64,000 nt of DNA, from assembly GCA_963761455.1 (NCBI GenBank), contig CAVXHA010000003.1, positions 958,036 through 1,022,035 on the forward strand, written 5' to 3'. This DNA comes from an uncultured Planctomycetota bacterium. Its GTDB lineage: Bacteria; Planctomycetota; Planctomycetia; Planctomycetales; Planctomycetaceae. This document shows positions 52,580 through 64,000 of this stretch, piece by piece (the first letter of the stretch is position 1; every line of letters begins with the position of its first letter). The translations under genes were made by a program, and so were the position numbers. The notes under the pieces were generated by a model. That model worked only from the letters and a program-made list of their open reading frames with translations, was not told the origin of the DNA and did no database searches.

Positions 52580-54040
52580 TTATTTCGCGGCCCCTGCCGG
52601 ACGCGCTCCTGTGTTTGTGGTCTCGACCGGGACGACCTTCTCGCCCGGGAAGAGGTCGGCCGTTGGGTGCCGCACGACGAGGTCATGCGGCTGGAGACCC
52701 GAAAGGATCTCGGCCTGGACGCCGCTGTCACGGCCGACTTTGACCGGAATAAGCTGCGCAAGCCCGTTTCGCACGACATAAACCGATGTCGTTGTTCCAT
52801 CGGCGCTGCTCACCAGGCAGGTCGACGGAACGCTCAGCTCCTTGGTGGAGCGGGTCAATTGAATCGTCACGCGGCCGAACATGCCGTCGCGCAGCTCGTT
52901 GGACGTGTTTTCCAAGTCGACCTCGACCCGCATGGTCCGGTCGGTGGGGTCCAGCGAATTGCCAATCCGCGCAACCTTGGCGTGGAATTCCTTGCCGGCC
53001 AAGGCATCCAGCTCGACCACGGCGGGATCGCCGGGATCGGTGTACGGCACATAGGTCTCGGGCATCTTCAAGATCACTCGCATCTTGTCGGTGCGGGCGA
53101 CGACCAACAGCGGCGTTCCACCCCCCTGGTCGGCGGCCCGGATGAAATCTCCCACATGGAAACTGCGCTTCGTGATGACGCCGGTGTAATCTTTGGGTGC
53201 GCGGATTTCGAGGTAATCGACAAACACCTTGGCCTTCGCCAGGACGGCGTTGGCCACCTGAACTTTGGCCTTGGCATTGGCGAGGTCGGCCTGCGCTTCC
53301 ACAATCTTGGCCGTTTTTGCCGCGACTTCCGCGATGGCCGTCTGGATCGCCGCCTTCGCCGCGTTTTCGGCCGCCTGCGCGGCGTCGCGCTCCTTGAGGT
53401 TCTGGTCCACGAGTTTCTCTTCGATCGCCCTCAGGTCGTAGAGATGCCGGATGCGGTCGTACTCGATCTGACGGAACGCCAAGTAAGCCGTCTCGCGTTT
53501 CAAATCGGCCCGTTTCTCGCCGACGTTCGCCTCGGCCGCCTCCAGGTCGGCCTTTGCCCTGTCGATCCCCGCCTCCGTCAGTTTCACTTGCGATTTGGCC
53601 TGGTCGAGTTGGGCTCTGGCTTGATCGACCGCCTGCACCAGCTCCGGCGCGGAAATCTTCGCCAGCAATTGGCCGGGCTTAACGCTGTCGCCGATGTCCA
53701 CGTTCTGTTCCTGGAGGTAGCCGGAAACCTTCGCGTAGAGGTCCGCGTAATCAAACGCTTTGACCGTGCCTGGCTCCGGAACGGATCGAGCCATGTTCCC
53801 GACACCAGGGCGGATGACGTCGACCCGCATGGATGTCGTGGGGGAAGATGCGTCGGCGGTCTTCGGCGCTGCCGTCGCCGCGGCGGCCGCTGATTCCGGT
53901 CCCGGGTCACCCGCACCGTTCGTTTTCGACCAATGGAACGCGAAAATCACCAGCAGGGCAACGACGACCGCGATTCCGAGTATCCATCTTCTTCGGACGA
54001 TCTGCTGCCCGACGGACTCGATCCGAGCTTGTACGTTCAT
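52580..54040 (-). CDS. HlyD-family periplasmic adaptor (MFP) with N-terminal TM anchor and a long coiled coil
   Basis: Inner start MNVQARIE at 54040. TM WILGIAVVVALLVIFAF. Lipoyl-like VSGYLQEQNVDIGDSVKPGQLLAKISAPEL, a long Ala/Glu/Lys coiled coil, IRAPKDYTGVITKR, beta-barrel and C-terminal domain. Intact. Confidence 0.85.
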   Translation of the reverse strand: MNVQARIESVGQQIVRRRWILGIAVVVALLVIFAFHWSKTNGAGDPGPESAAAAATAAPKTADASSPTTSMRVDVIRPGVGNMARSVPEPGTVKAFDYADLYAKVSGYLQEQNVDIGDSVKPGQLLAKISAPELVQAVDQARAQLDQAKSQVKLTEAGIDRAKADLEAAEANVGEKRADLKRETAYLAFRQIEYDRIRHLYDLRAIEEKLVDQNLKERDAAQAAENAAKAAIQTAIAEVAAKTAKIVEAQADLANAKAKVQVANAVLAKAKVFVDYLEIRAPKDYTGVITKRSFHVGDFIRAADQGGGTPLLVVARTDKMRVILKMPETYVPYTDPGDPAVVELDALAGKEFHAKVARIGNSLDPTDRTMRVEVDLENTSNELRDGMFGRVTIQLTRSTKELSVPSTCLVSSADGTTTSVYVVRNGLAQLIPVKVGRDSGVQAEILSGLQPHDLVVRHPTADLFPGEKVVPVETTNTGARPAGAAK

Positions 54041-54122: not shown

Positions 54123-55879
54123 CTACTTCGAGCGCTTGCCGTCTGTGCCCGTGCCCACTTGCAGCGGATCGGGGAGGGCCGCGCTGGGAGTCTCGCCGAT
54201 CGCGACGAAGAGCTCAAACTGGGCCATATCGTATCCGACGAGCGCGGCAATGAACTCGTCGCGGGCCTCGACTAACAGGTTGACACTATTGATTGCCTCC
54301 AGGGGCAGGGCCTCGCCGCCGCGTGTGCGGGCGATTTCTTCACGTGCCCCGGTCGCCGCCGTTTGCAACCGTCCCCGAGCCAATTCCAATTGCTGCCGCC
54401 TCGCCTCCGATTGGGCGTAGGCATCGGCCACTTCGCGGCCAATTTGGTTGAGTGCCAGGCCCCGCCGCGCCAGGGCGTCATCGCGTTCGGCCCGCCGTTC
54501 CTTTTGAATGGCCGCGTTCCCAAAGCCGAGGTTTTGGAGGGTCCAGACCGCATACACGTCGAAGTCGGTTCGGCCCGACGTCGCTTGAAACAGCAAGCCC
54601 GCCTGGTCTCCGCCCCCGCCGAAGCCCCCTGCGCTGTAGCCGACCGAAAGCAATGGCAGCCAGGGCGCGCGTATTCTTGTTTCAATCGGTATTCCGCCGC
54701 CGCAATGTCCGCCGCGCGGGCGGCCGCCTCGGGCCGAGCGTTCAATGCGATTTGAATCAGCTCTTCGACGCGATAGGTCGAATCGACCAGTTGCACGGGC
54801 TCCAGTGCGGCCCCGGCGGTCGTGAGGCGGATCGACGGATCGAGGTGGAGCGTCCGGGCCAAATCGGCCGAAGCGACCGCGACACTTTCCTGAGCCCGCT
54901 CTTCGCGGGAATGCAGCAGTAGGGCATCCGTTCGCGCCCGATTATAGTCGCCGACCCGGCCCTGCCCCGTCCGGGCGAACGCGGCGGTGGCCTGCACCAC
55001 TTGTCGAAGATTGTCCTCGGACCGCCGGATCGCTTCGAGTGCGGCTTGCGTTCCCACGAGACCGAGGTACCGCCGGGCGACATCCAACAAGACCGCGTTT
55101 TCGATGCCGTGCGAGTCGGCGCGACGGCTGTTGACGACCTGCCGGGCGACAAGGGGGGCAAAATAGACATCGCCGAGATGGCCGAACAGCTGCACCGCCG
55201 GAACGGCGACGGTTTGCGAGCCGACCGCCCAATCCCCGCCGCCGAAATAGACCGACTGCAAATCAACCTTCTCGATTTGACCATCGCCGGCTTGAAGCGT
55301 GCCTTGATGGAGATGATACATGGCTCCCGCGTTGAGCGACGGAAGCATCATCGCGCGGGCCTGAAGCTGGAGAGCCAGCGCCTCCTGGATCGCCTCGCGC
55401 CCCAGCGCGATCGTCGGATTCTCGGCCTCGGCCAAGCGCAAGACCGTGGAAAGGTCGACCGTGTACTCTTCCCCCGTCACGGGGACGATCTCCTCCCGCG
55501 ACAACCCCGCCAGCTCGTTCCCAATGCGGGCGGCCTTTTGCAGAGGCCGCGCTTCTTGTGGTGTGGAAATGCCACCTGGAGATCGCAGGTCATCAAGGGT
55601 TGGGCCCGCCGCGGGATCAGCAGGGGGCGCCGGCGGAGGAGGGAGAAGGTCGATGACCACAAACCGCCCCCCTCCCGCTTCAATCTTTAGTTCTGACGTC
55701 GCAGCCTGGTCGGCGCCGTGAGCATGTCCGGCCCGCAGTCCCGCAACGCAAAGCGCGGCCAAGCAGATGCCGGCGACAAACGTCCACCGAGACCAAGCCC
55801 TCCGCCAACCGGCGGTCCTGGCAAAGATCGATTTGGAGCAAGTCTGCGGCATCATGAGCGTGGGCCGTACGCAAATCAC
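54123..55879 (-). CDS. TolC-like outer membrane factor, paralog 1. One apparent frameshift near 54660.
   Basis: YTVDLSTVLRLAEAENPTIALGREAIQEA..LPSLNAGA.. and a second repeat ..LIQIALNARPE.. then ..VGYSAGGFGGGGD..VWTLQNLGFGN..EAINSVNLLVEARDEFIAALVGYDMAQFELFVAIG. ORFs 54272..55879 and 54123..54653. Confidence 0.8.
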
Positions 55880-55897
55880 AGGCGCGAGTATTCCCTG

Positions 55898-57556
55898 TCA
55901 GCGGGGAGCCGGCGGCGGCATCCGCGCTGGGGATTGTCGTGCGGCTGGGTCCTGTCCGTTTTCATCGGCGGGTCGAACCAGAACGTCCGCGGGAGGCTTT
56001 CCGAGGGCGACATACAGCTCGAACTGAGCCCGGTCGTAGTCGAGAATGGTATTGAGGTAAGCGACGCGAGACCGCGACAAGAGGCGCAGACTGTTGAGCA
56101 CCTCCAAGGGGATCCCGATCTGTCCCATGATGCGGCGCAAGTCTTCCTGATACGCCTCGGTGCTCGATTGGATCGCCAGCTCGCACGTCCGCATCTGGGC
56201 GAAACGGGCGTGCGTTTTGGCGTAGGCGTCGGCCACTTCGGACCGGATCTGATCGAGCGTGGCAGTCTCCTGAAGATCCGTGCTGCGCAGCCGGCTGTGG
56301 GCCGCGTCGATCGAGCGCCCGGTTCCCGATCCCTAAATTCAAAACGGTCCAATAGGCCATCACGTCGAGATCCTGTCGCGGACTGCACGAGTCCGAACCG
56401 TGGATCGCCGAGCGCGTCAGTGCCTGACCCGACCGGTTGCGCGACGAGATTGCTCCCTCCGCCAAAGTCGCCCGCGCTATAACCGATGTAAACGGTCGGC
56501 GAGAACGGCAGCCAGTGCGCCTGATCCAGAGCTTCAAGCGCCTGTACGACCGCCGTTCGCCGCTCTTTCAGCTCCGGCCGGTTCAAGAGTGCGATCGCCA
56601 GCAGTTCCGGCAGGGGAATCGGTTCGGGGACGATCGATTTCGGAAGGACTTGATCGTCGACGGGGTGCAGCCGTAGCGAAGGATCGAGGTGCAAAAGCCG
56701 GCACAGCCGCGCCGATGTCGTGCCGATGTCTCCTTCCATCTGGATGACGATGGCCTCGCGGCGTGCCAGCTCGGTGGCAGCCCGGTCCGCGTCGGCCTTG
56801 CGCCCCTGTCCCGCCTTCAAATAGGCCGCCGTCAGGCGGGCCAATTCGCGTGCGTCGTCCCGCGTGAGCAGGCGCCACGGCGTGCTGCCCCTCGGCGCGC
56901 ACCAGCTCGATGTAGCCCAAGGCCACCGCCAGCAGTGTGTCCTGAGAGACGCACTGCGCTCTCGAATCCGCGGCGGTTAACCTCTTGCCGGCTGATGAGA
57001 TAGGCGAAAAGGATCTGCGACACGTTACCGGTGAGCACGACCCCGGGAATCTGCACCGTTCCCCCGGCGACCGCCAATGCGCCCGCGCCGACGTACAACG
57101 CATCGCGATTGACGTTGAGAATCGTTCCATTCGAGTCCTGCAGCACGCCTCGATGCGAATCGAGGTTCGACCCGGCATTGAGCGTCGGCAGGAATTGGGC
57201 CGCCGCGAGCTGACGCAGTGCCACCGCTTCGAGCACGCGTTGTTGCGCAAGAGAATTTGCGAGTTCTGCACGCCGGCCAGCCGCAGCGCGCTCGACAAAT
57301 CGATCGGCGTGAGGTTCGTCTGCAGGTACTGCTTCAACAACTCGTCATCGGCCCCCGCCGGAGAAGAGACCGCCGCGAGTCCCAAGCACGAAATCCCAAT
57401 GACGAAAGAAATCCGAAGTACGAAGGACCAAAGCCCACGGAAGTCGCGGCACGTGCGCGGGCCCGCGGCGAGGCGCAACAAGGCAATCGCGCGCTCTCCG
57501 ACGGTCGCCCTGCGCTCCAGAACTTCGTGCTTCGTACTTGGGATTTTCTTCGTCAT
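55898..57556 (-). CDS. TolC-like outer membrane factor, paralog 2. About 5 apparent frameshifts. Start uncertain (the ATG lies inside a REP element).
   Basis: IDLSSALRLAGVQNSQIL.., LPTLNAGSNLDSHRGVLQDSNGTILNVNRDALYVGAGALAVAGGTVQIPG.., ..LPELLAIALLNRPELKERR..FSPTVYIGYSAGDFGGGSN.., ..LEVLNSLRLLSRSRVAYLNTILDYDRAQFELYVALG. Stitched from ORFs 56534, 56832, 55876 and 55898. Confidence 0.75.
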
Positions 57557-57573
57557 TCGTGCTTCGGATTTCG
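57381..57573. repeat. REP-like inverted repeat (same motif family as 23407-23541) overlapping the 5' end of the TolC paralog 2 ORF
   Basis: The left arm ..aatgacgaaagaaatccgaagtacgaagg (to 57426) pairs with the right arm cttcgtgcttcgtacttgggattttcttcgtcatt.. (from 57523). The arms are about 100 nt apart. Confidence 0.75.
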
Positions 57574-57590
57574 CCTTCTTGGCCGACTGC

Positions 57591-59110
57591 CTATTTCGGC
57601 AGTAGGATCTGGGCCGGCGGGTGCAGGAGATCGTCGGGAACCGGTCGGGCCAGCGTGTCGGCCGGCGGCGCGCCGAGCGCCACGTACAATTGAAACTCGG
57701 CTTGATCGAAGCCGATGATCGCGTCCAGGTAGTCCCTCCGGGCCGTGGCCGCTTGCCTCAGGCTGTCGAGCAGCTCGATCGGCAGCCCTTGCAGTCCGCG
57801 GATGCGAAGCAGGTCTTCCCGCATGGCGTTGGTCCCCGACCGGACGGCCTGCGCCTGGACGTCAATTTCCGCAAAGCGGGCTTGCGTGCGGACGTAAGCG
57901 GCGGCGACCTCTTCCCGCACGCGGTCCAGCACGACCATCTCTTCGAGCTGCGACTCGCCGAGCCGCGCCGGGCCGCGTCGATCAGCGCCTTATTTCCAAA
58001 CCCCAGATTCCGCAACGACCAGTAAAAAACGACGTCGACGTCGCTTCGGTCGCTGAAACTGCCGAACCGCGGCTGGCCTTCGCCGGCTCCAATGCTGCTC
58101 CCTCCGCCGAATGCCCCGTCGCTGAATCCGGCAAGCACCGTCGGCGAGAAGGGAAGCACCTTTGCCGAGTGGAGCTCGAGCAGGGCCGCCTTGATTGCCG
58201 CGCGCCGCGCCAAAAGCTCCGGGCGGTGCAACAAGGCCGTCGCCAACAACTCGGGCAGGGGAATCCCCGTCGGGACGACCGGCTCCGGAACGACTTGCGA
58301 TTCCAACGGCCGCAGGCGCGTCGTCGTTTCGAGGTTCAGCAGTTCGCACAGTCGATGCGAGGCTTGAGCCCGCCGGGCCTCCGCTTCGGCCACGACCTGT
58401 TCGCGCTGCGCCAGCTCCGTCGCCGCGCGATTGGCGTCGGCCTGCCGCCCTTGGCCCGTTCTGGCGTTGGCCGCGGTCAGGCGGGCGACTTCGCTGGCGT
58501 CATTCCGCGTGAGGATTGCCAGGCTCCGCGCTCCAGAGGCGCGGAGCAATTCCGCGTACGCCACCGCCACGTCGAGCAACACGGCGTTGTCGACGGCTTG
58601 CCGGTCGAATCGGGATTGATTCGTGATTTGCCGGCTAACCAGGTAATTGAAGATCCCCTCGGAAATGTTGATGTTGTATTGCAGTCCGGGAATCTGAACC
58701 GTTCCCGATCCGACGGCATACGCGCCGGCTCCCACGTAAAGCGCGCTGCGATTGACCGACAGGATCTCGCCGGTGGGCTGTTGCAGGACGCCCGTGTGCG
58801 AGTCGAAGTTGGTGCCGAGGTTGAGGTCCGGCAGGATCTGAGCGGCCGCCAATTGCTGACCGGCCACGGCCGCCTCGACGCGCTGTTGGGCGACCACGAT
58901 TTGCAAGTTTTGGACGCCGGCCAACCGCAGAGCCGAACTGAGATCGATCGTCGTCGGCTCATCCTCCGAGCTCGCGGCGGGTGCCGCCTCCGACGCCGGC
59001 ATCAAACGGGGCTGGTCGCCCGCCAGCGCGCACGACGCTCGCGGACTGCACTCGAAAGCCATTCCGGCGAGGAGGATCAGTAAACCAGTCCTGCCCGGAC
59101 TCATCTTCAT
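57591..59110 (-). CDS. TolC-like outer membrane factor, paralog 3. One apparent frameshift near 57960.
   Basis: Signal MKMSPGRTGLLILLAGMAF. IDLSSALRLAGVQNLQIVVAQQRVEAA..LPDLNLGTNFDSHTGVLQQPTGEILSVNRSALYVGAGAYAVGSGTVQIPG.., ..LPELLATALLHRPELLARR..FSPTVLAGFSDGAFGGGSS.., ..IELLDSLRQAATARRDYLDAIIGFDQAEFQLYVALG. Confidence 0.85.
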
Positions 59111-59407
59111 AGGGACGCCCGTACACTTTTTGATTCAGCGAGTGGGCCGCGGAAGGCGCGGACCCCGGCTTTTCGGCGCGTGGAAGTGCCTCATCAGGTC
59201 ATCGGCCGAATCAACTTGCCGAATTTAACGATTCTGCCGATTTTGACGGCCGACGACTCTGAGAGGGCCATTCGGGGAATCGCCGGAACCGCGAAGAGAG
59301 CGATTCAGGCCAACGCAGAAGGCGCGACGCACTTGCGGGCAAGCCGGCAGCCGCCCCCACGAGGCTGGCCCTTGTGTCGCCTTTTTCGACTGGCTTACGC
59401 TTGTTCT

Positions 59408-60073
59408 ATGTGGGGAGGCGTGCTGGAACAGGCCAATTCGATGTATCAGGGCGGCGACACGACCCAGTTTCAACGCCTGCTCGACGGCTGGGCCGCCGGC
59501 GATGACGCTGCGCGGAACCAACTCCTCGAACGGGCCGCACAGCGGCTGCTGAAACTCACACGCCGCATGCTCCACAACTATCCGCATCTGCGCCGCTGGG
59601 AAGAGACCGACGATGTTTTTCAGAATGCAATTTTGCGGCTCTACCGTTCGCTCGGCGACGTCCGGCCCGATTCGGTCCGCGGATTTTTCGCGCTGGCGGC
59701 AACGCAGATCCGCAGAACGCTCATCGACCTGGCGCGGCACCATTTTTGCCCCGAGGGCTCGGCCGCCCGCCATCACAGCGACGTTGGCTCCTCCGACGCC
59801 TCGGCTGGGAAGACCGACTCGCGAATGGCCGGCGCCGACGAGCCGCCCGAAACGTTGGACGCCTGGGCCCGGTTCCACGAAGCCGTCGAACTGCTCCCCA
59901 CCGAGGAGCGCGACGCCTTCAGCCTGATCTGGTACGGCGAAGCGACGCAAAAGGAGGCCGCCGCGCTTCTGGGGATTTCTGAACGGACCGTTTTGCGGCG
60001 CCTCGTCCGTGCCCGCCTGCAGTTATACGAATCACTCAAAAATGCCCGCGCTACCTTCGAGGAGGCGAATTGA
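59408..60073 (+). CDS. ECF-type RNA polymerase sigma factor (PF07638-like, the kinase-associated type)
   Basis: DTTQFQRLLDGWAAGDDAARNQLLERAAQRLLKLTRRML.., region 2 DDVFQNAILRLYRSL, region 4 HTH TQKEAAALLGISERTVLRRLVRARLQL. An alternative start is at 59441. The long ORF from 59180 is probably an over-extension. Confidence 0.85.
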   Translation: MWGGVLEQANSMYQGGDTTQFQRLLDGWAAGDDAARNQLLERAAQRLLKLTRRMLHNYPHLRRWEETDDVFQNAILRLYRSLGDVRPDSVRGFFALAATQIRRTLIDLARHHFCPEGSAARHHSDVGSSDASAGKTDSRMAGADEPPETLDAWARFHEAVELLPTEERDAFSLIWYGEATQKEAAALLGISERTVLRRLVRARLQLYESLKNARATFEEAN

Positions 60074-60076
60074 AAG

Positions 60077-60190
60077 ACACGAAGCACGAAATCTGAATGA
60101 CGAAGGAAGTCCGAATGACCGAACAATCGAAATAAAAGGTCAGCCGAGGGTCAGTGCTGCTTTTCATCCGTGCTTCGTGCTTCGGATTTG
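60077..60190. repeat. REP-like element (CGAAGCACGAA / GAATGACGAA vocabulary) between the ECF sigma and kinase genes
   Basis: gacacgaagcacgaaatctgaatgacgaaggaagtccgaatgacc ... catccgtgcttcgtgcttcggatttgatt. It shares motifs with the elements at 23407 and 57381. Pairing is imperfect. Confidence 0.65.
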
Positions 60191-60234
60191 ATTGATCGGG
60201 AGAGGCATGCCCGTTTTCGAAGAGGTGAGCTGCG

Positions 60235-63200
60235 ATGGCCGTTGACGATCGACTGAGTGATTTGCTCGTGGAATGGGAACAAGGGCGGCGGAGCGGTCAG
60301 GAGCCGTCGCTCGAGGAGCTGTGTCGCGACACGCCCGATCTGCTTCCCGTGGTGAGGGAGTCAATCGATTCCCTCAAGGCGACCGACTGGATGTTCGGCC
60401 CGGAGCCGAGTGATTTTTCTTCTTCGGAGTCTTCGGTTGCCGATTCCGAGCGCGCCGCCTTGCACGACACGGAGCTGCCCGCGTCGCACCTCACGGTGCA
60501 GGAGTTCGCGGCGTCGATTTTTCAAAGCGGTCTGTTGTCGCGGGCCGAGATCGACGAGCTGAAAGAGCGTCTCGACGCCAGTGCGTTGCCGGGCGAGGCG
60601 CGCGAGATCGCCTCGAAACTCGTGACCGAAGGCAAACTCACGCGATACCAGGCGGCCGTGCTGCTCAAGGCGTCGAAGAATCCGCTGTTGGTCGATAACT
60701 ATGTGATCCTCGACACGCTCGACACGGGGGGCATGGGGCTGGTCTTCAAGGCGCTGCACCGGTCGATGAACCGCGTCGTCGCGCTCAAGCTTTTGCCCGC
60801 CTCGATGATGAGTGCCCGCGACACCGTGAAACGCTTCCAGCGCGAGGTGCAGGCGGCCGCCGCGCTCAAGCATCCCAACATCGTTGCCGCCTACGATGCC
60901 GACGAATCCGAAGAGATCGCCTACCTCGTGCTGGAATACGTCGAGGGGACCAACCTCTTCCGGTTGGTGAAAGAAGAGGGGCCGCGCTCGCTCGCTCAGG
61001 CCGCCGACTACGTCCGCCAGGCGGCGACCGGCCTGGCGTACCTGCACTCTCGCGGCATCATCCACCGCGACGTCAAGCCGGCCAACCTGATCCTGGCCAA
61101 CGACGGCACGGTCAAGCTCTTGGACATGGGACTCGTGCGGTTCGCATCCTCCGAAGATCTCTCCTGCGCCGAGATGGACCAGGAGCTGACGCAAGCGGGA
61201 ATCGTGATCGGCACAGTCGCCTACATGTCGCCCGAACAGGCGCTCGACACGCGCTCCGCCGATCAGCGGTCGGACATCTATAGCCTGGGCTGCACGCTCT
61301 TTTTCCTGCTCACGGGCCGATCGCTCTACCACGAGGAAACCGGCATGAAGACGCTCTTGGCCCACCGCGAGCAGCCGGTCCCCTCGCTCCGCGAATTCTG
61401 CGAAGAGGCCCCGGTCTCGCTCGACGCGGTGTTCCGCACGATGGTGGCCAAGCGGCCGGCCGATCGGCTGCAAACGATGGACGAAGTCATTGCCGCCCTC
61501 GACGCCTGCGTGCCGCCGCCTGCCGCGCCGACTGGCCGTGCGGGCCGGCCTGTCCCGAGCGCACCGCCGCTGCGAACACGGACGGATCGCGACCGAGTGT
61601 GGCAATCGCGCCGATTCCGGATCGCCGCCGCGGTCACCGCGCTGGCCGCGGCCCTGCTCGGCAGCATCTATCTGGCGGTTATCGTCATTCGCATCAAGAC
61701 CTCGCAGGGGACAACCGAAGTCAGCGTCAACGACCCGAACGCAAAGATCGAAATCGAGTCTCAGCCCCAAGGGCCCGCCGTTTCGCAGCTTCGATCGCCC
61801 TTCGAGACGAGTCAGCCAGTCGGAAACGACCGGGATCGGAGAATCGGTCTGTCCTCCGGCATCGCGCCTGCAGCGAAGCCCAAGCCGCCGGTCCACGTCG
61901 TGACGGCGACGGTTCGCAAGGGGGACTTCGACGTCTACTTGTCGGGCCTGCAGGGCGCGGTGCGTGCCTCGCAGATCGTTTCGATCCGCACCCGGGTTGA
62001 CGGCGAGATCACCAAGGTCAATTTCACCGAAGGGCAAGTCGTTCACATGGGTGACGTGCTGTTTGAAATCGACCCCCGGCCCTACAAGATTCGATTGGAT
62101 GAAGCCGAGGCAAAGCTCGCCAAGGACAAACAATCAGTCGTGCACGCCCAAGAGGAGTTGCAAGCGGTGAAAAAATTACGCGCGAACTCCGCGGTCTCCC
62201 TGAGCGATAAGCTCGCGGCGGTCGCTCAATACGAAGGCCTCGTCAAAACCGACGGGGCGCTCGTCGAAGAGGCCCAGCTTCAGCTCAAGGGGTGCCAGAT
62301 CGTGGCTCCCATCAGTGGACGGATCGGACTCCGGGCGTTGGATAAAGGGAACATTGTTCAGGCCGCCAGCTCGACCAGGCTGGCCACCATCGCGCAGTTT
62401 CAGCCGATCGACGTCTTTTTTTCCATCCCGCAGGACCAAATCGATCGCGTCCAGCAGAAGCTGAGCTCAACAAAAGAGACCATGGTCGAAATCTGGAACC
62501 ACGGCGGCGGTGCCAAGATTGGGACGGCACGGCTTGTCGGGCTCGACAACGCGTTAAATCCGGGGACCGGAACCGTTGAGGTGAAAGCCCGTTCTGCGAA
62601 CGTCGACAATCGCTTGTTTCCCGGTGAGTTCGTGGACGTGCGGCTCCTCGTTGACACGCTGCACGACGCCGTGATCGTGCCGACGGCCGCCGTGCAGCAC
62701 GGCGACGCGGAGACGTTCGCCTACATCGTCAGGCCGGATCAGACGGTCGAGAAACGCAAGCCGATCCTCGGCCCCAGCGAGACGCAGGAGACGGTCGTGA
62801 CGAGCGGCCTCTCGCCGGGCGACGTCGTGGTCGTCGAAGGAACCGACAAGCTGTCCGACGGATTCAAGGTGGAAGCCCAAACCCCGACCGCCAATAGCAC
62901 TGCGAATCTCGATCGGCAGGTCGCCGATTGGGTGCTGGCCAATCGGGGAACCGTCAACCTCAAGGAATTTCGCGGCCGAACGTTCCAGTTCGTCGATGCG
63001 CTCCCCCCGACCGACTTTCACATTGAGACGATCAATCTGAAGGATTACGTCACCGACGATTCGCGCGGCGCGGCACCGGCGGAAGGCGTCGGCCTGCGCC
63101 GGTCCCGGTCGGGATTCGGCCGCCGCCGGCTGCGAGTCCAGAACCAGGCGGCCGGCGGCGACGAGCAGACGGGGCGGATGTTTCACCGCATCGAATTCAG

Positions 63201-64000
63201 CGAGGCCGACCTCGACCGTTTGGCGTCGTTGAAGGAATTGCGAACACTGATCTTTGCCTCATCGGCACTCACCGACGACGTCTTCAGCGCGATTGAAGGG
63301 GCTCACGAAGCTCGACGCGCTCGGATTGGAGGGCTCGAGCATCACCGATGCGGGCCTCACCTCCCTCCTGGGCATGACGGAATTGACGTATTTGGATCTC
63401 GATTCGACCGCCATCACGGATGCGGGATTGAAGGAGATCGCCAAGCTCAAGTCGTTGAATGATCTGAGTCTCGTCTCGGAAGGCGAGCGGAGCGGCCGGA
63501 TTCAGAGAACCCATCCCTCTCTTCGACTTGGCCAAACGCGCACCACGGTGAACGGCATCGACGAGCTGCAGCGGGCGCTTCCCAACTGCATCGTTTTCGC
63601 ATCGCACCTGCCCGATTTTTCGCCGGCCCCTCCCGCGCCGGGCCGCTCGGATCGTGATTGGGCCCAATGGCTGCTCCCGCCGAATCAGGGCTCCGGGAAG
63701 CACGTCTTCACCGACCTTGATCCGGAGACTGCCATTAGTTCCTTCGAGGAATTGCCTCCCGTCGATTTCCACATCGTGCAGGTCAACTTCGACCTGAATC
63801 TCATCTCGGAAACCATGCTGCGGCGGATGGCCGGCCTGGCAAAGCTCAGGGGGCTTTATTTCAAGCACCTGCCGACGTCCGCGTTTGCCGGCCTGGGCGA
63901 CCTCAAGCAGCTCGAGCACCTGTGGATCGAGGAAACCGACGCGACCGACGACGCGCTGCAAGTCCTCGGCAACCTGACCCGGCTCAAATTGCTGAAGCTG
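60235..64000 (+). CDS. Ser/Thr kinase, TM helix, MdtA/AcrA-type periplasmic adaptor (MFP) and leucine-rich-repeat region. The 3' end lies outside the window. Frame switches occur only after about 63300.
   Basis: One uninterrupted frame from 60235 to about 63300. Kinase: GGMGLVFKA, VALKLL, HRDVKPANLIL, DMGLV, GTVAYMSPEQ. TM: FRIAAAVTALAAALLGSIYLAVIVI (about 61610-61700). MFP (about 61885-62880) is colinear by eye with E. coli MdtA: [114 protein letters not shown]. LRR-like LTKLDALGLEGSSITDAGLTSLLGMTELTYLDLDSTAITDAGLKEIAKLKSL.. continues to the window end. Confidence 0.85.

Follow-up and report, generated by a model that had tools for sequence, protein, structure and literature searches.

Three adjacent TolC-type genes of a soil planctomycete as candidate subunits of one heterotrimeric outer membrane duct

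We analysed a stretch of 64,000 nucleotides (the window; positions 958,036 to 1,022,035 of contig CAVXHA010000003.1, assembly GCA_963761455.1) from the genome of a soil planctomycete, labelled G000, in which four consecutive genes on the minus strand, from 59110 to 52580, encode three outer membrane factors (OMFs) of the TolC family (Pfam OEP) and then a periplasmic adaptor. The three OMF genes are named here by position as A, B and C, and correspond to paralogs 3, 2 and 1, respectively, of an earlier sequence-only reading of this DNA. Comparative genomics leads us to propose that A, B and C are probably non-interchangeable subunits of a single TolC-type duct, a heterotrimer with one protomer of each that would replace the usual homotrimer. 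That reading had raised a heterotrimer as a possibility, and the possibility now finds support in Rosetta-stone fusions of A to B and of B to C and in the constant number of three units, evidence that is comparative and is not proof. We regard the locus as a strong candidate, not yet proven, to encode the first such duct made of three different subunits.

In the proposed duct, each subunit would be exported by its own signal peptide, and A, B and C together would form the 12-stranded barrel and the 12-helix tunnel. The adaptor gene directly downstream and an RND pump would supply its docking partners. Co-assembly in one trimer, descent from a 2:1 ancestor and the identity of the pump partner in G000 are the parts of this proposal that we infer.

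Natural fusions and conservation of the three units

A search with C returned chains of about 950-1100 aa that join neighbouring units, and a scan of 1.8 billion proteins together with a word search added many such fusions. After removal of artefacts, three kinds of fusion are left: B::C (P0394-P0397 and P0399), A::B (P0389 and, less certainly, P0241) and D23::D1, the last in two clades, where D23 denotes the upstream type (like A and B) and D1 the downstream type (like C) of a two-gene relative of the triplet. A separate A-type gene lies directly upstream of every B::C gene examined (four loci: L050, L056, L062, with an overlap of 4 nt, and L063), and a separate C-type gene lies directly downstream of both A::B genes (two loci: L057/L058, with an overlap of 4 nt, and L061). 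The same type of A::B locus is found in two independent assemblies (L057 and L058), and P0389, P0391 and P0385 each recur across independent assemblies, short-read ones included. The A::B and B::C loci also carry an adaptor and/or an RND pump, the order at L063 being A, B::C, membrane fusion protein, RND pump. The linkers of the fusions are 37-184 residues long, hydrophilic and without the signal-peptide-like segment that is present at the N-termini of the chains. An AlphaFold2 (AF2) model of a B::C chain reached a predicted template modelling score (pTM) of 0.65 over 1087 aa, equal to that of a single unit despite 37% disordered residues, which hints that the two units may pack in a defined way.

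Four further candidates for fusions (P0023, P0286, P0215 and the P0220 tail) were rejected as frameshift or read-through artefacts. Two large searches gave no triple fusion A::B::C among their top-scoring proteins. A phylum-wide genome search with a fusion protein at E <= 1e-150 gave no match, even in G000 itself, the threshold being too strict. An alignment by MAFFT that mixed fusions with single-unit homologues stacked both types on the first half and was left out of folding.

The tandem of three genes is conserved in related genomes. The same three genes follow one another in A-B-C order in 11 of the 11 other genomes of the genus, a recurrence far beyond chance, and every locus of the ABC clade has exactly three units in this order, none having fewer or more. 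In a maximum-likelihood tree of 86 units, free and fused, A, B and C are each monophyletic (ultrafast bootstrap/SH-aLRT support of 99/91, 99/97 and 100/99, respectively), with each clade recovered in 99-100% of the bootstrap trees. The three-unit system thus arose once and predates the genus, and it keeps to three units whichever way these are divided among polypeptides. Recent lineage-specific duplication, which the sequence-only reading named as an objection to a heterotrimer, does not describe these genes: A, B and C are old clades common to the genus, to G158, which belongs to another family and has a triplet of its own, and to metagenomic lineages. For the same genome pairs within the genus, A, B and C have almost the same nonsynonymous rate (dN), and all three are under strong purifying selection, with omega, the ratio of nonsynonymous to synonymous rates (dN/dS), mostly at about 0.07-0.13 and as high as 0.24 in the most divergent pairs. 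A single A-B-C hetero-oligomer is the assembly that the A::B and B::C fusions, the constant number of three, the matched rates and the strict co-inheritance together predict.

The three genes might instead encode three separate homotrimeric ducts, A3, B3 and C3, which would be alternative exits differing in gating, substrates or partners, co-transcribed and sharing the adaptor and several pumps. We consider such an arrangement unlikely, and the evidence falls on both sides. One OMF commonly serves several pumps, and in half of the genus the triplet adjoins neither an adaptor nor a pump, much as a general-purpose duct would. The 37 fixed differences between A and B within the genus could reflect specialisation. 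Moreover, all matches in the PDB to our structural model of an A ortholog (P0001; see below) come from homotrimeric families, and every structurally characterised OMF is a homotrimer (bioRxiv 10.1101/2024.07.30.605823), a point that also weighs against a heterotrimer. However, separate homotrimers leave unexplained why the three genes are constantly retained together in one order across old lineages, why neighbouring units have repeatedly been joined in one chain, by linkers of about 40-90 aa, and why the total is fixed at three units, for which independent ducts would give no reason. It is hard to see how two separate trimers could be made from three tethered two-unit chains, and the near equality of dN across the three genes also speaks against independent ducts.

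Two-gene relatives and the number of subunits

The two-gene form is widespread. In a sample of 151 genomes of the class, D1 directly adjoins D23 at 28 of 29 D23 loci, and the sole locus without an adjoining D1 (1/29) lies at a contig end. The pair is usually encoded together with an orthologous adaptor and an RND pump of the AcrB family, the identity of the adaptor orthologs in other families being 38-47%. With the single OMFs of ordinary RND operons included, our trees group D23 and D1 as sisters; C falls inside the D1 clade, and A and B both derive from D23. The three-gene system derives from the widespread two-gene form. An ordinary single duct gene would have duplicated to give the upstream type D23 and the downstream type D1, and D23 would have duplicated again to give A and B. 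Since A and B come from D23 and C from D1, this history fits an ancestral 2:1 heterotrimer, (D23)2(D1), which would have resolved after the duplication into the 1:1:1 form A-B-C. Two copies of the D23-D1 cluster occur in other families, in G076 (L035, L036), G142 (L038, L039), G159 and G108; those of G076 are almost the same, and those of G142 have diverged.

Beyond the homotrimeric state of known OMFs, several observations weigh against placing A, B and C in one ring. A fusion shows joint function or proximity of two units, not strictly their membership in the same ring. The linker of one of the A::B fusions (P0241) keeps a hydrophobic segment, and this protein may be a read-through artefact. 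Furthermore, there are stand-alone D23::D1 fusions (L051-L055) with no third OMF gene nearby (Table 1); one of them lies among polysaccharide genes, and the neighbours at L052 are an asparagine synthase, an alginate-lyase-like gene, a glycosyltransferase and a Poly_export gene. The stand-alone fusions would imply a 1:1 ratio of the units in the two-gene relatives, a ratio that does not tile a simple trimer, so that there should be either a gene for the third unit at another site or a different kind of assembly, such as a ring of six units.

The units might form a hetero-oligomer of another size, for instance a six-unit ring much wider than TolC, whose composition would be (ABC)2 in the present system and (D23-D1)3 in its two-gene relatives. 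Six units would suit both the two-gene and the three-gene forms, and the stand-alone fusions, with their implied equal numbers, make up two conserved clades drawn from independent assemblies. We nevertheless judge a six-unit ring to be very improbable. The origin of both A and B from D23 fits the passage from a 2:1 to a 1:1:1 trimer better than it fits an alternating ring, and genomes with a stand-alone fusion could carry the gene for a third unit at another site. A duct of 12 helices matches the hexamers of adaptors and the trimers of RND pumps, and to our knowledge TolC-family assemblies have been seen only as trimers. If the six-unit reading were true, the channel would have 24 strands and 24 helices and about twice the width of TolC, unlike any outer-membrane conduit described so far.

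Fold, layout and integrity of the three genes

Domain searches and structure prediction place A, B and C in the TolC/OMF family, as distant members. Pfam OEP matched the open reading frame (ORF) pieces of A, B and C at 40.7, 20.4, 22.8, 32.7 and 27 bits, above or near the cut-off of 22, and a genome-wide scan with PF02321 matched both the N- and the C-terminal halves at the locus, giving two tandem OEP repeats per protomer. The three consecutive, co-oriented TolC-like genes recognised by the sequence-only reading are confirmed, and the shared motif blocks that it quoted are present. Orthologs of A, B and C score 52.7, 53.9 and 44 bits, respectively, against TIGR01844 (the TolC subfamily of type I secretion), below its cut-off of 225, and none of them matched the NCBIfam model of the NodT family. 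Because a profile of A and B found no PDB sequence at E <= 0.001, the fold was addressed by structure. The AF2 model of P0001, an ortholog 89% identical to A, has the topology of a TolC protomer (helices 153-221 and 378-442, strands 102-152 and 328-367), and in Foldseek all of its top 44 PDB matches are OMFs (E 1e-14 to 1e-4, TM-score 0.52-0.69), including OprN, TolC, ST50, OprM, CusC, MtrE, VceC, CmeC and SilC. The fold test covered this ortholog of A, the gene in the window being frame-broken. AF2 predicts additional beta strands at residues 102-152 of the model (about 58650-58800 of the window, in A), within the first extracellular loop, which is long and conserved (YVGAGA.AVG.GTVQIPG); a similar prediction of 8 strands by AlphaFold3 has been reported for Treponema OMFs (10.1101/2024.07.30.605823).

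Compared with TolC, OprM, OprN and CusC (PDB 1EK9, 1WP1, 5IUY and 3PIK), the planctomycete units share the fold, the two OEP repeats, the strands and the helices of about 65-69 residues, and their genomic partners are likewise an RND_mfp adaptor and an AcrB-family pump. The planctomycete units differ in having only 12-21% identity to these proteins, no lipobox and a long conserved first extracellular loop, and in comprising three distinct, conserved subunit types with natural two-unit fusions, where the known ducts have one self-associating protomer. The lipobox pattern [LVI][ASTVI][GAS]C, with the acylated Cys that marks the NodT-type lipoprotein OMFs (OprM/CusC class), is absent from the leaders of A, B and C in the window and in the relatives of the genus. 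The D1 of a distant two-gene relative (L018) does carry a lipobox, LFVVGC.

Table 1. Positions of the three OMF genes, their neighbours in the window, and stand-alone D23::D1 fusions at loci of other genomes
Feature	Location	Strand	Description
OMF unit A	window 57591..59110	-	about 507 aa after allowing for 1 single-base deletion near 57968; N-terminal signal peptide
OMF unit B	window 55898..57556	-	full reading requires 5 single-base indels to be allowed for
OMF unit C	window 54123..about 55855	-	about 577 aa, with a long N-terminal leader; 1 single-base deletion in a C run near 54665
Periplasmic adaptor (membrane fusion protein of RND_mfp/HlyD type)	window 52580..54040	-	intact; last gene of the unit
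REP-like palindromic dispersed repeat	window 57378..57572	.	in the A-B spacer
ECF sigma gene and Ser/Thr kinase fused to a HlyD-type adaptor domain	window 59180-63462	+	divergent from the triplet
Stand-alone D23::D1 fusion	L052 9001-12087		about 950-1130 aa (range for the three); no adaptor or pump gene nearby
Stand-alone D23::D1 fusion	L054 9001-12246		as above
Stand-alone D23::D1 fusion	L051 633-3473		as above

The reference for the coding sequences was L022, a metagenome contig of a close relative with 86% nucleotide identity, in which the genes are intact. A is read from the ORFs 57758-59110 and 57591-57938, each with a Pfam OEP match, and is 87-95% identical to the intact 510-aa ortholog on L022; B is 83-100% identical to its intact ortholog there across the matched pieces; C is read from the ORFs 54272-55879 and 54123-54653, again each with a Pfam OEP match, and is 85% identical to an intact 573-aa ortholog. 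A-type and B-type units share 50-57% identity, and either of them shares 33-38% with C, which agrees with the closeness of paralogs 2 and 3 noted from the sequence alone. The adaptor matches HlyD_D23 and HlyD_3 of Pfam and is 82% identical to its 487-aa ortholog on L022, whose start corresponds to position 54040 of the window and which scores 202 bits against TIGR01730 (cut-off 94.9). The true start of B is uncertain, because the REP-like element overlaps the start of its longest ORF. This element has inverted-repeat arms of 43 nt (57389-57431 and 57524-57566), arms of about 45 nt of this kind are copied at many sites in G000 and in relatives of the genus, and its translation (WSFVLRISFVIG) is found at the same place in L022. 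Scans of the locus for promoters and terminators gave nothing exceeding chance.

Nucleotide alignment to L022 places seven single-base indels at about 57968, 57248, 56951, 56872, 56388, 56312 and 54665, one in A, five in B and one in C, with no other coding damage; the sequence-only reading had likewise counted about five frame corrections for paralog 2. We considered whether the cluster is decaying in G000, with B, and perhaps A and C, being real pseudogenes, which we find exceedingly improbable. The seven breaks do lie within 5 kb, and none falls in the adjoining adaptor (1.5 kb) or kinase gene (3.2 kb). However, the G000 assembly (7.5 Mb) has a completeness score of only 67% in just 6 contigs, and the contig of the triplet carries frameshifts elsewhere: 4 in the housekeeping sigma-70 (RpoD-like) gene about 4 kb past the end of the window (G000:C3:1026148-1027825) and 2 in an ABC2 permease gene (C3:709941-711033). 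The named members of the genus are long-contig metagenome-assembled genomes of uncultured Planctomycetaceae. Other few-contig, low-completeness assemblies of the genus break the triplet at differing places, whereas all three genes are intact in six many-contig assemblies of the genus and in two metagenome contigs. When the indels are skipped, there are no in-frame stops, and dN/dS against the nearest relative is 0.087 for A, 0.109 for B and 0.133 for C, below the 0.189 of the unbroken adaptor in the same comparison. Because of the low completeness, the frameshifts in sigma-70, the intact relatives, and the lack of stops together with the low dN/dS, the seven breaks are almost certainly errors of assembly or sequencing and not decay. 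The objection that two of the three genes might be pseudogenes, which accompanied the original suggestion of a heterotrimer, does not hold in view of these results. Other broken genes in the window are to be read with the abundance of single-base indels in the G000 assembly in mind.

Genomic partners and known heteromeric systems

A pump of the AcrB family is encoded in the same cluster as the units in G005, G158, L056, L061, L062 and L063, and in G005 it lies directly upstream of A. The ortholog of this pump in G000 is on another contig (C5:264948-268190), is itself frame-broken and has none of the neighbours seen in G005. A conserved protein of about 1100 aa encoded near the doublets was considered as a kinase-adaptor fusion and rejected, as it is the AcrB-family pump. 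In a sub-lineage of the genus without an adjacent adaptor, genes for hybrid histidine kinase/response regulators flank the triplet (L010 12154-13953, L011 4717-6522 and L014 4000-6309).

Divergent from the triplet in the window, the ECF sigma gene and the kinase-adaptor gene form a neighbourhood common to G000 and G009 only (73% and 83% identity), and in the nearest relatives a sigma-70 gene stands in place of the pair, which looks like an insertion of about 9 kb. The two genes were considered as conserved partners of the triplet and rejected on the grounds that they adjoin it just in these two of the 12 genomes of the genus. The suggestion that the three OMFs are alternative exits picked by two adaptors, the other alternative offered from the sequence alone, finds no support for the same reason, the kinase-adaptor adjoining the triplet in 2 of 12 genomes.

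Precedents for such a replacement of identical subunits come from other parts of efflux systems. TriABC-OpmH has two different adaptors, TriA and TriB. One review (Chem Rev 2021, PMC8277102) gives MdtBC as a rare heterotrimer among RND pumps and mentions heterotrimers for no other component. In both cases, paralogous subunits from adjacent genes take the place of a part of the pump that is normally a homo-oligomer, as proposed here; those cases differ from our system in that they concern the inner-membrane pump and the adaptor, whereas our proposal concerns the duct. Co-encoding, orthogroups and fusions are observed for A, B and C, and their union in one oligomer, after the logic of MdtBC, is a prediction. 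In our full-text literature searches, we found no paper describing a heteromeric OMF or TolC-type duct. The OMF paralogs TP0966-TP0969 of Treponema pallidum have consecutive locus numbers, which suggests that they are adjacent in the genome, and have been modelled as homotrimers (10.1101/2024.07.30.605823). They resemble the present case as several consecutively numbered TolC-family paralogs of one genome, and they differ from it in that the paper gives no evidence of co-assembly from fusions or orthogroups and that their sequences are unrelated to the planctomycete clades.

Models of pump assembly, of gating and of adaptor docking all rest on the symmetry of TolC trimers made of identical chains. 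The locus and its relatives provide a testable candidate for a departure from this symmetry, with three old subunit families in a fixed order and fusions that tell which subunits should be neighbours, and structural studies could start directly from the two-unit fusion proteins. If the heterotrimer is real, it would show a symmetric channel turning asymmetric, from a homotrimer through a 2:1 to a 1:1:1 assembly, and it would mean that the tunnel entrance and the lumen can be built from three different walls. Many of the annotations as 'TolC family protein' in Planctomycetes would then need to be re-read.

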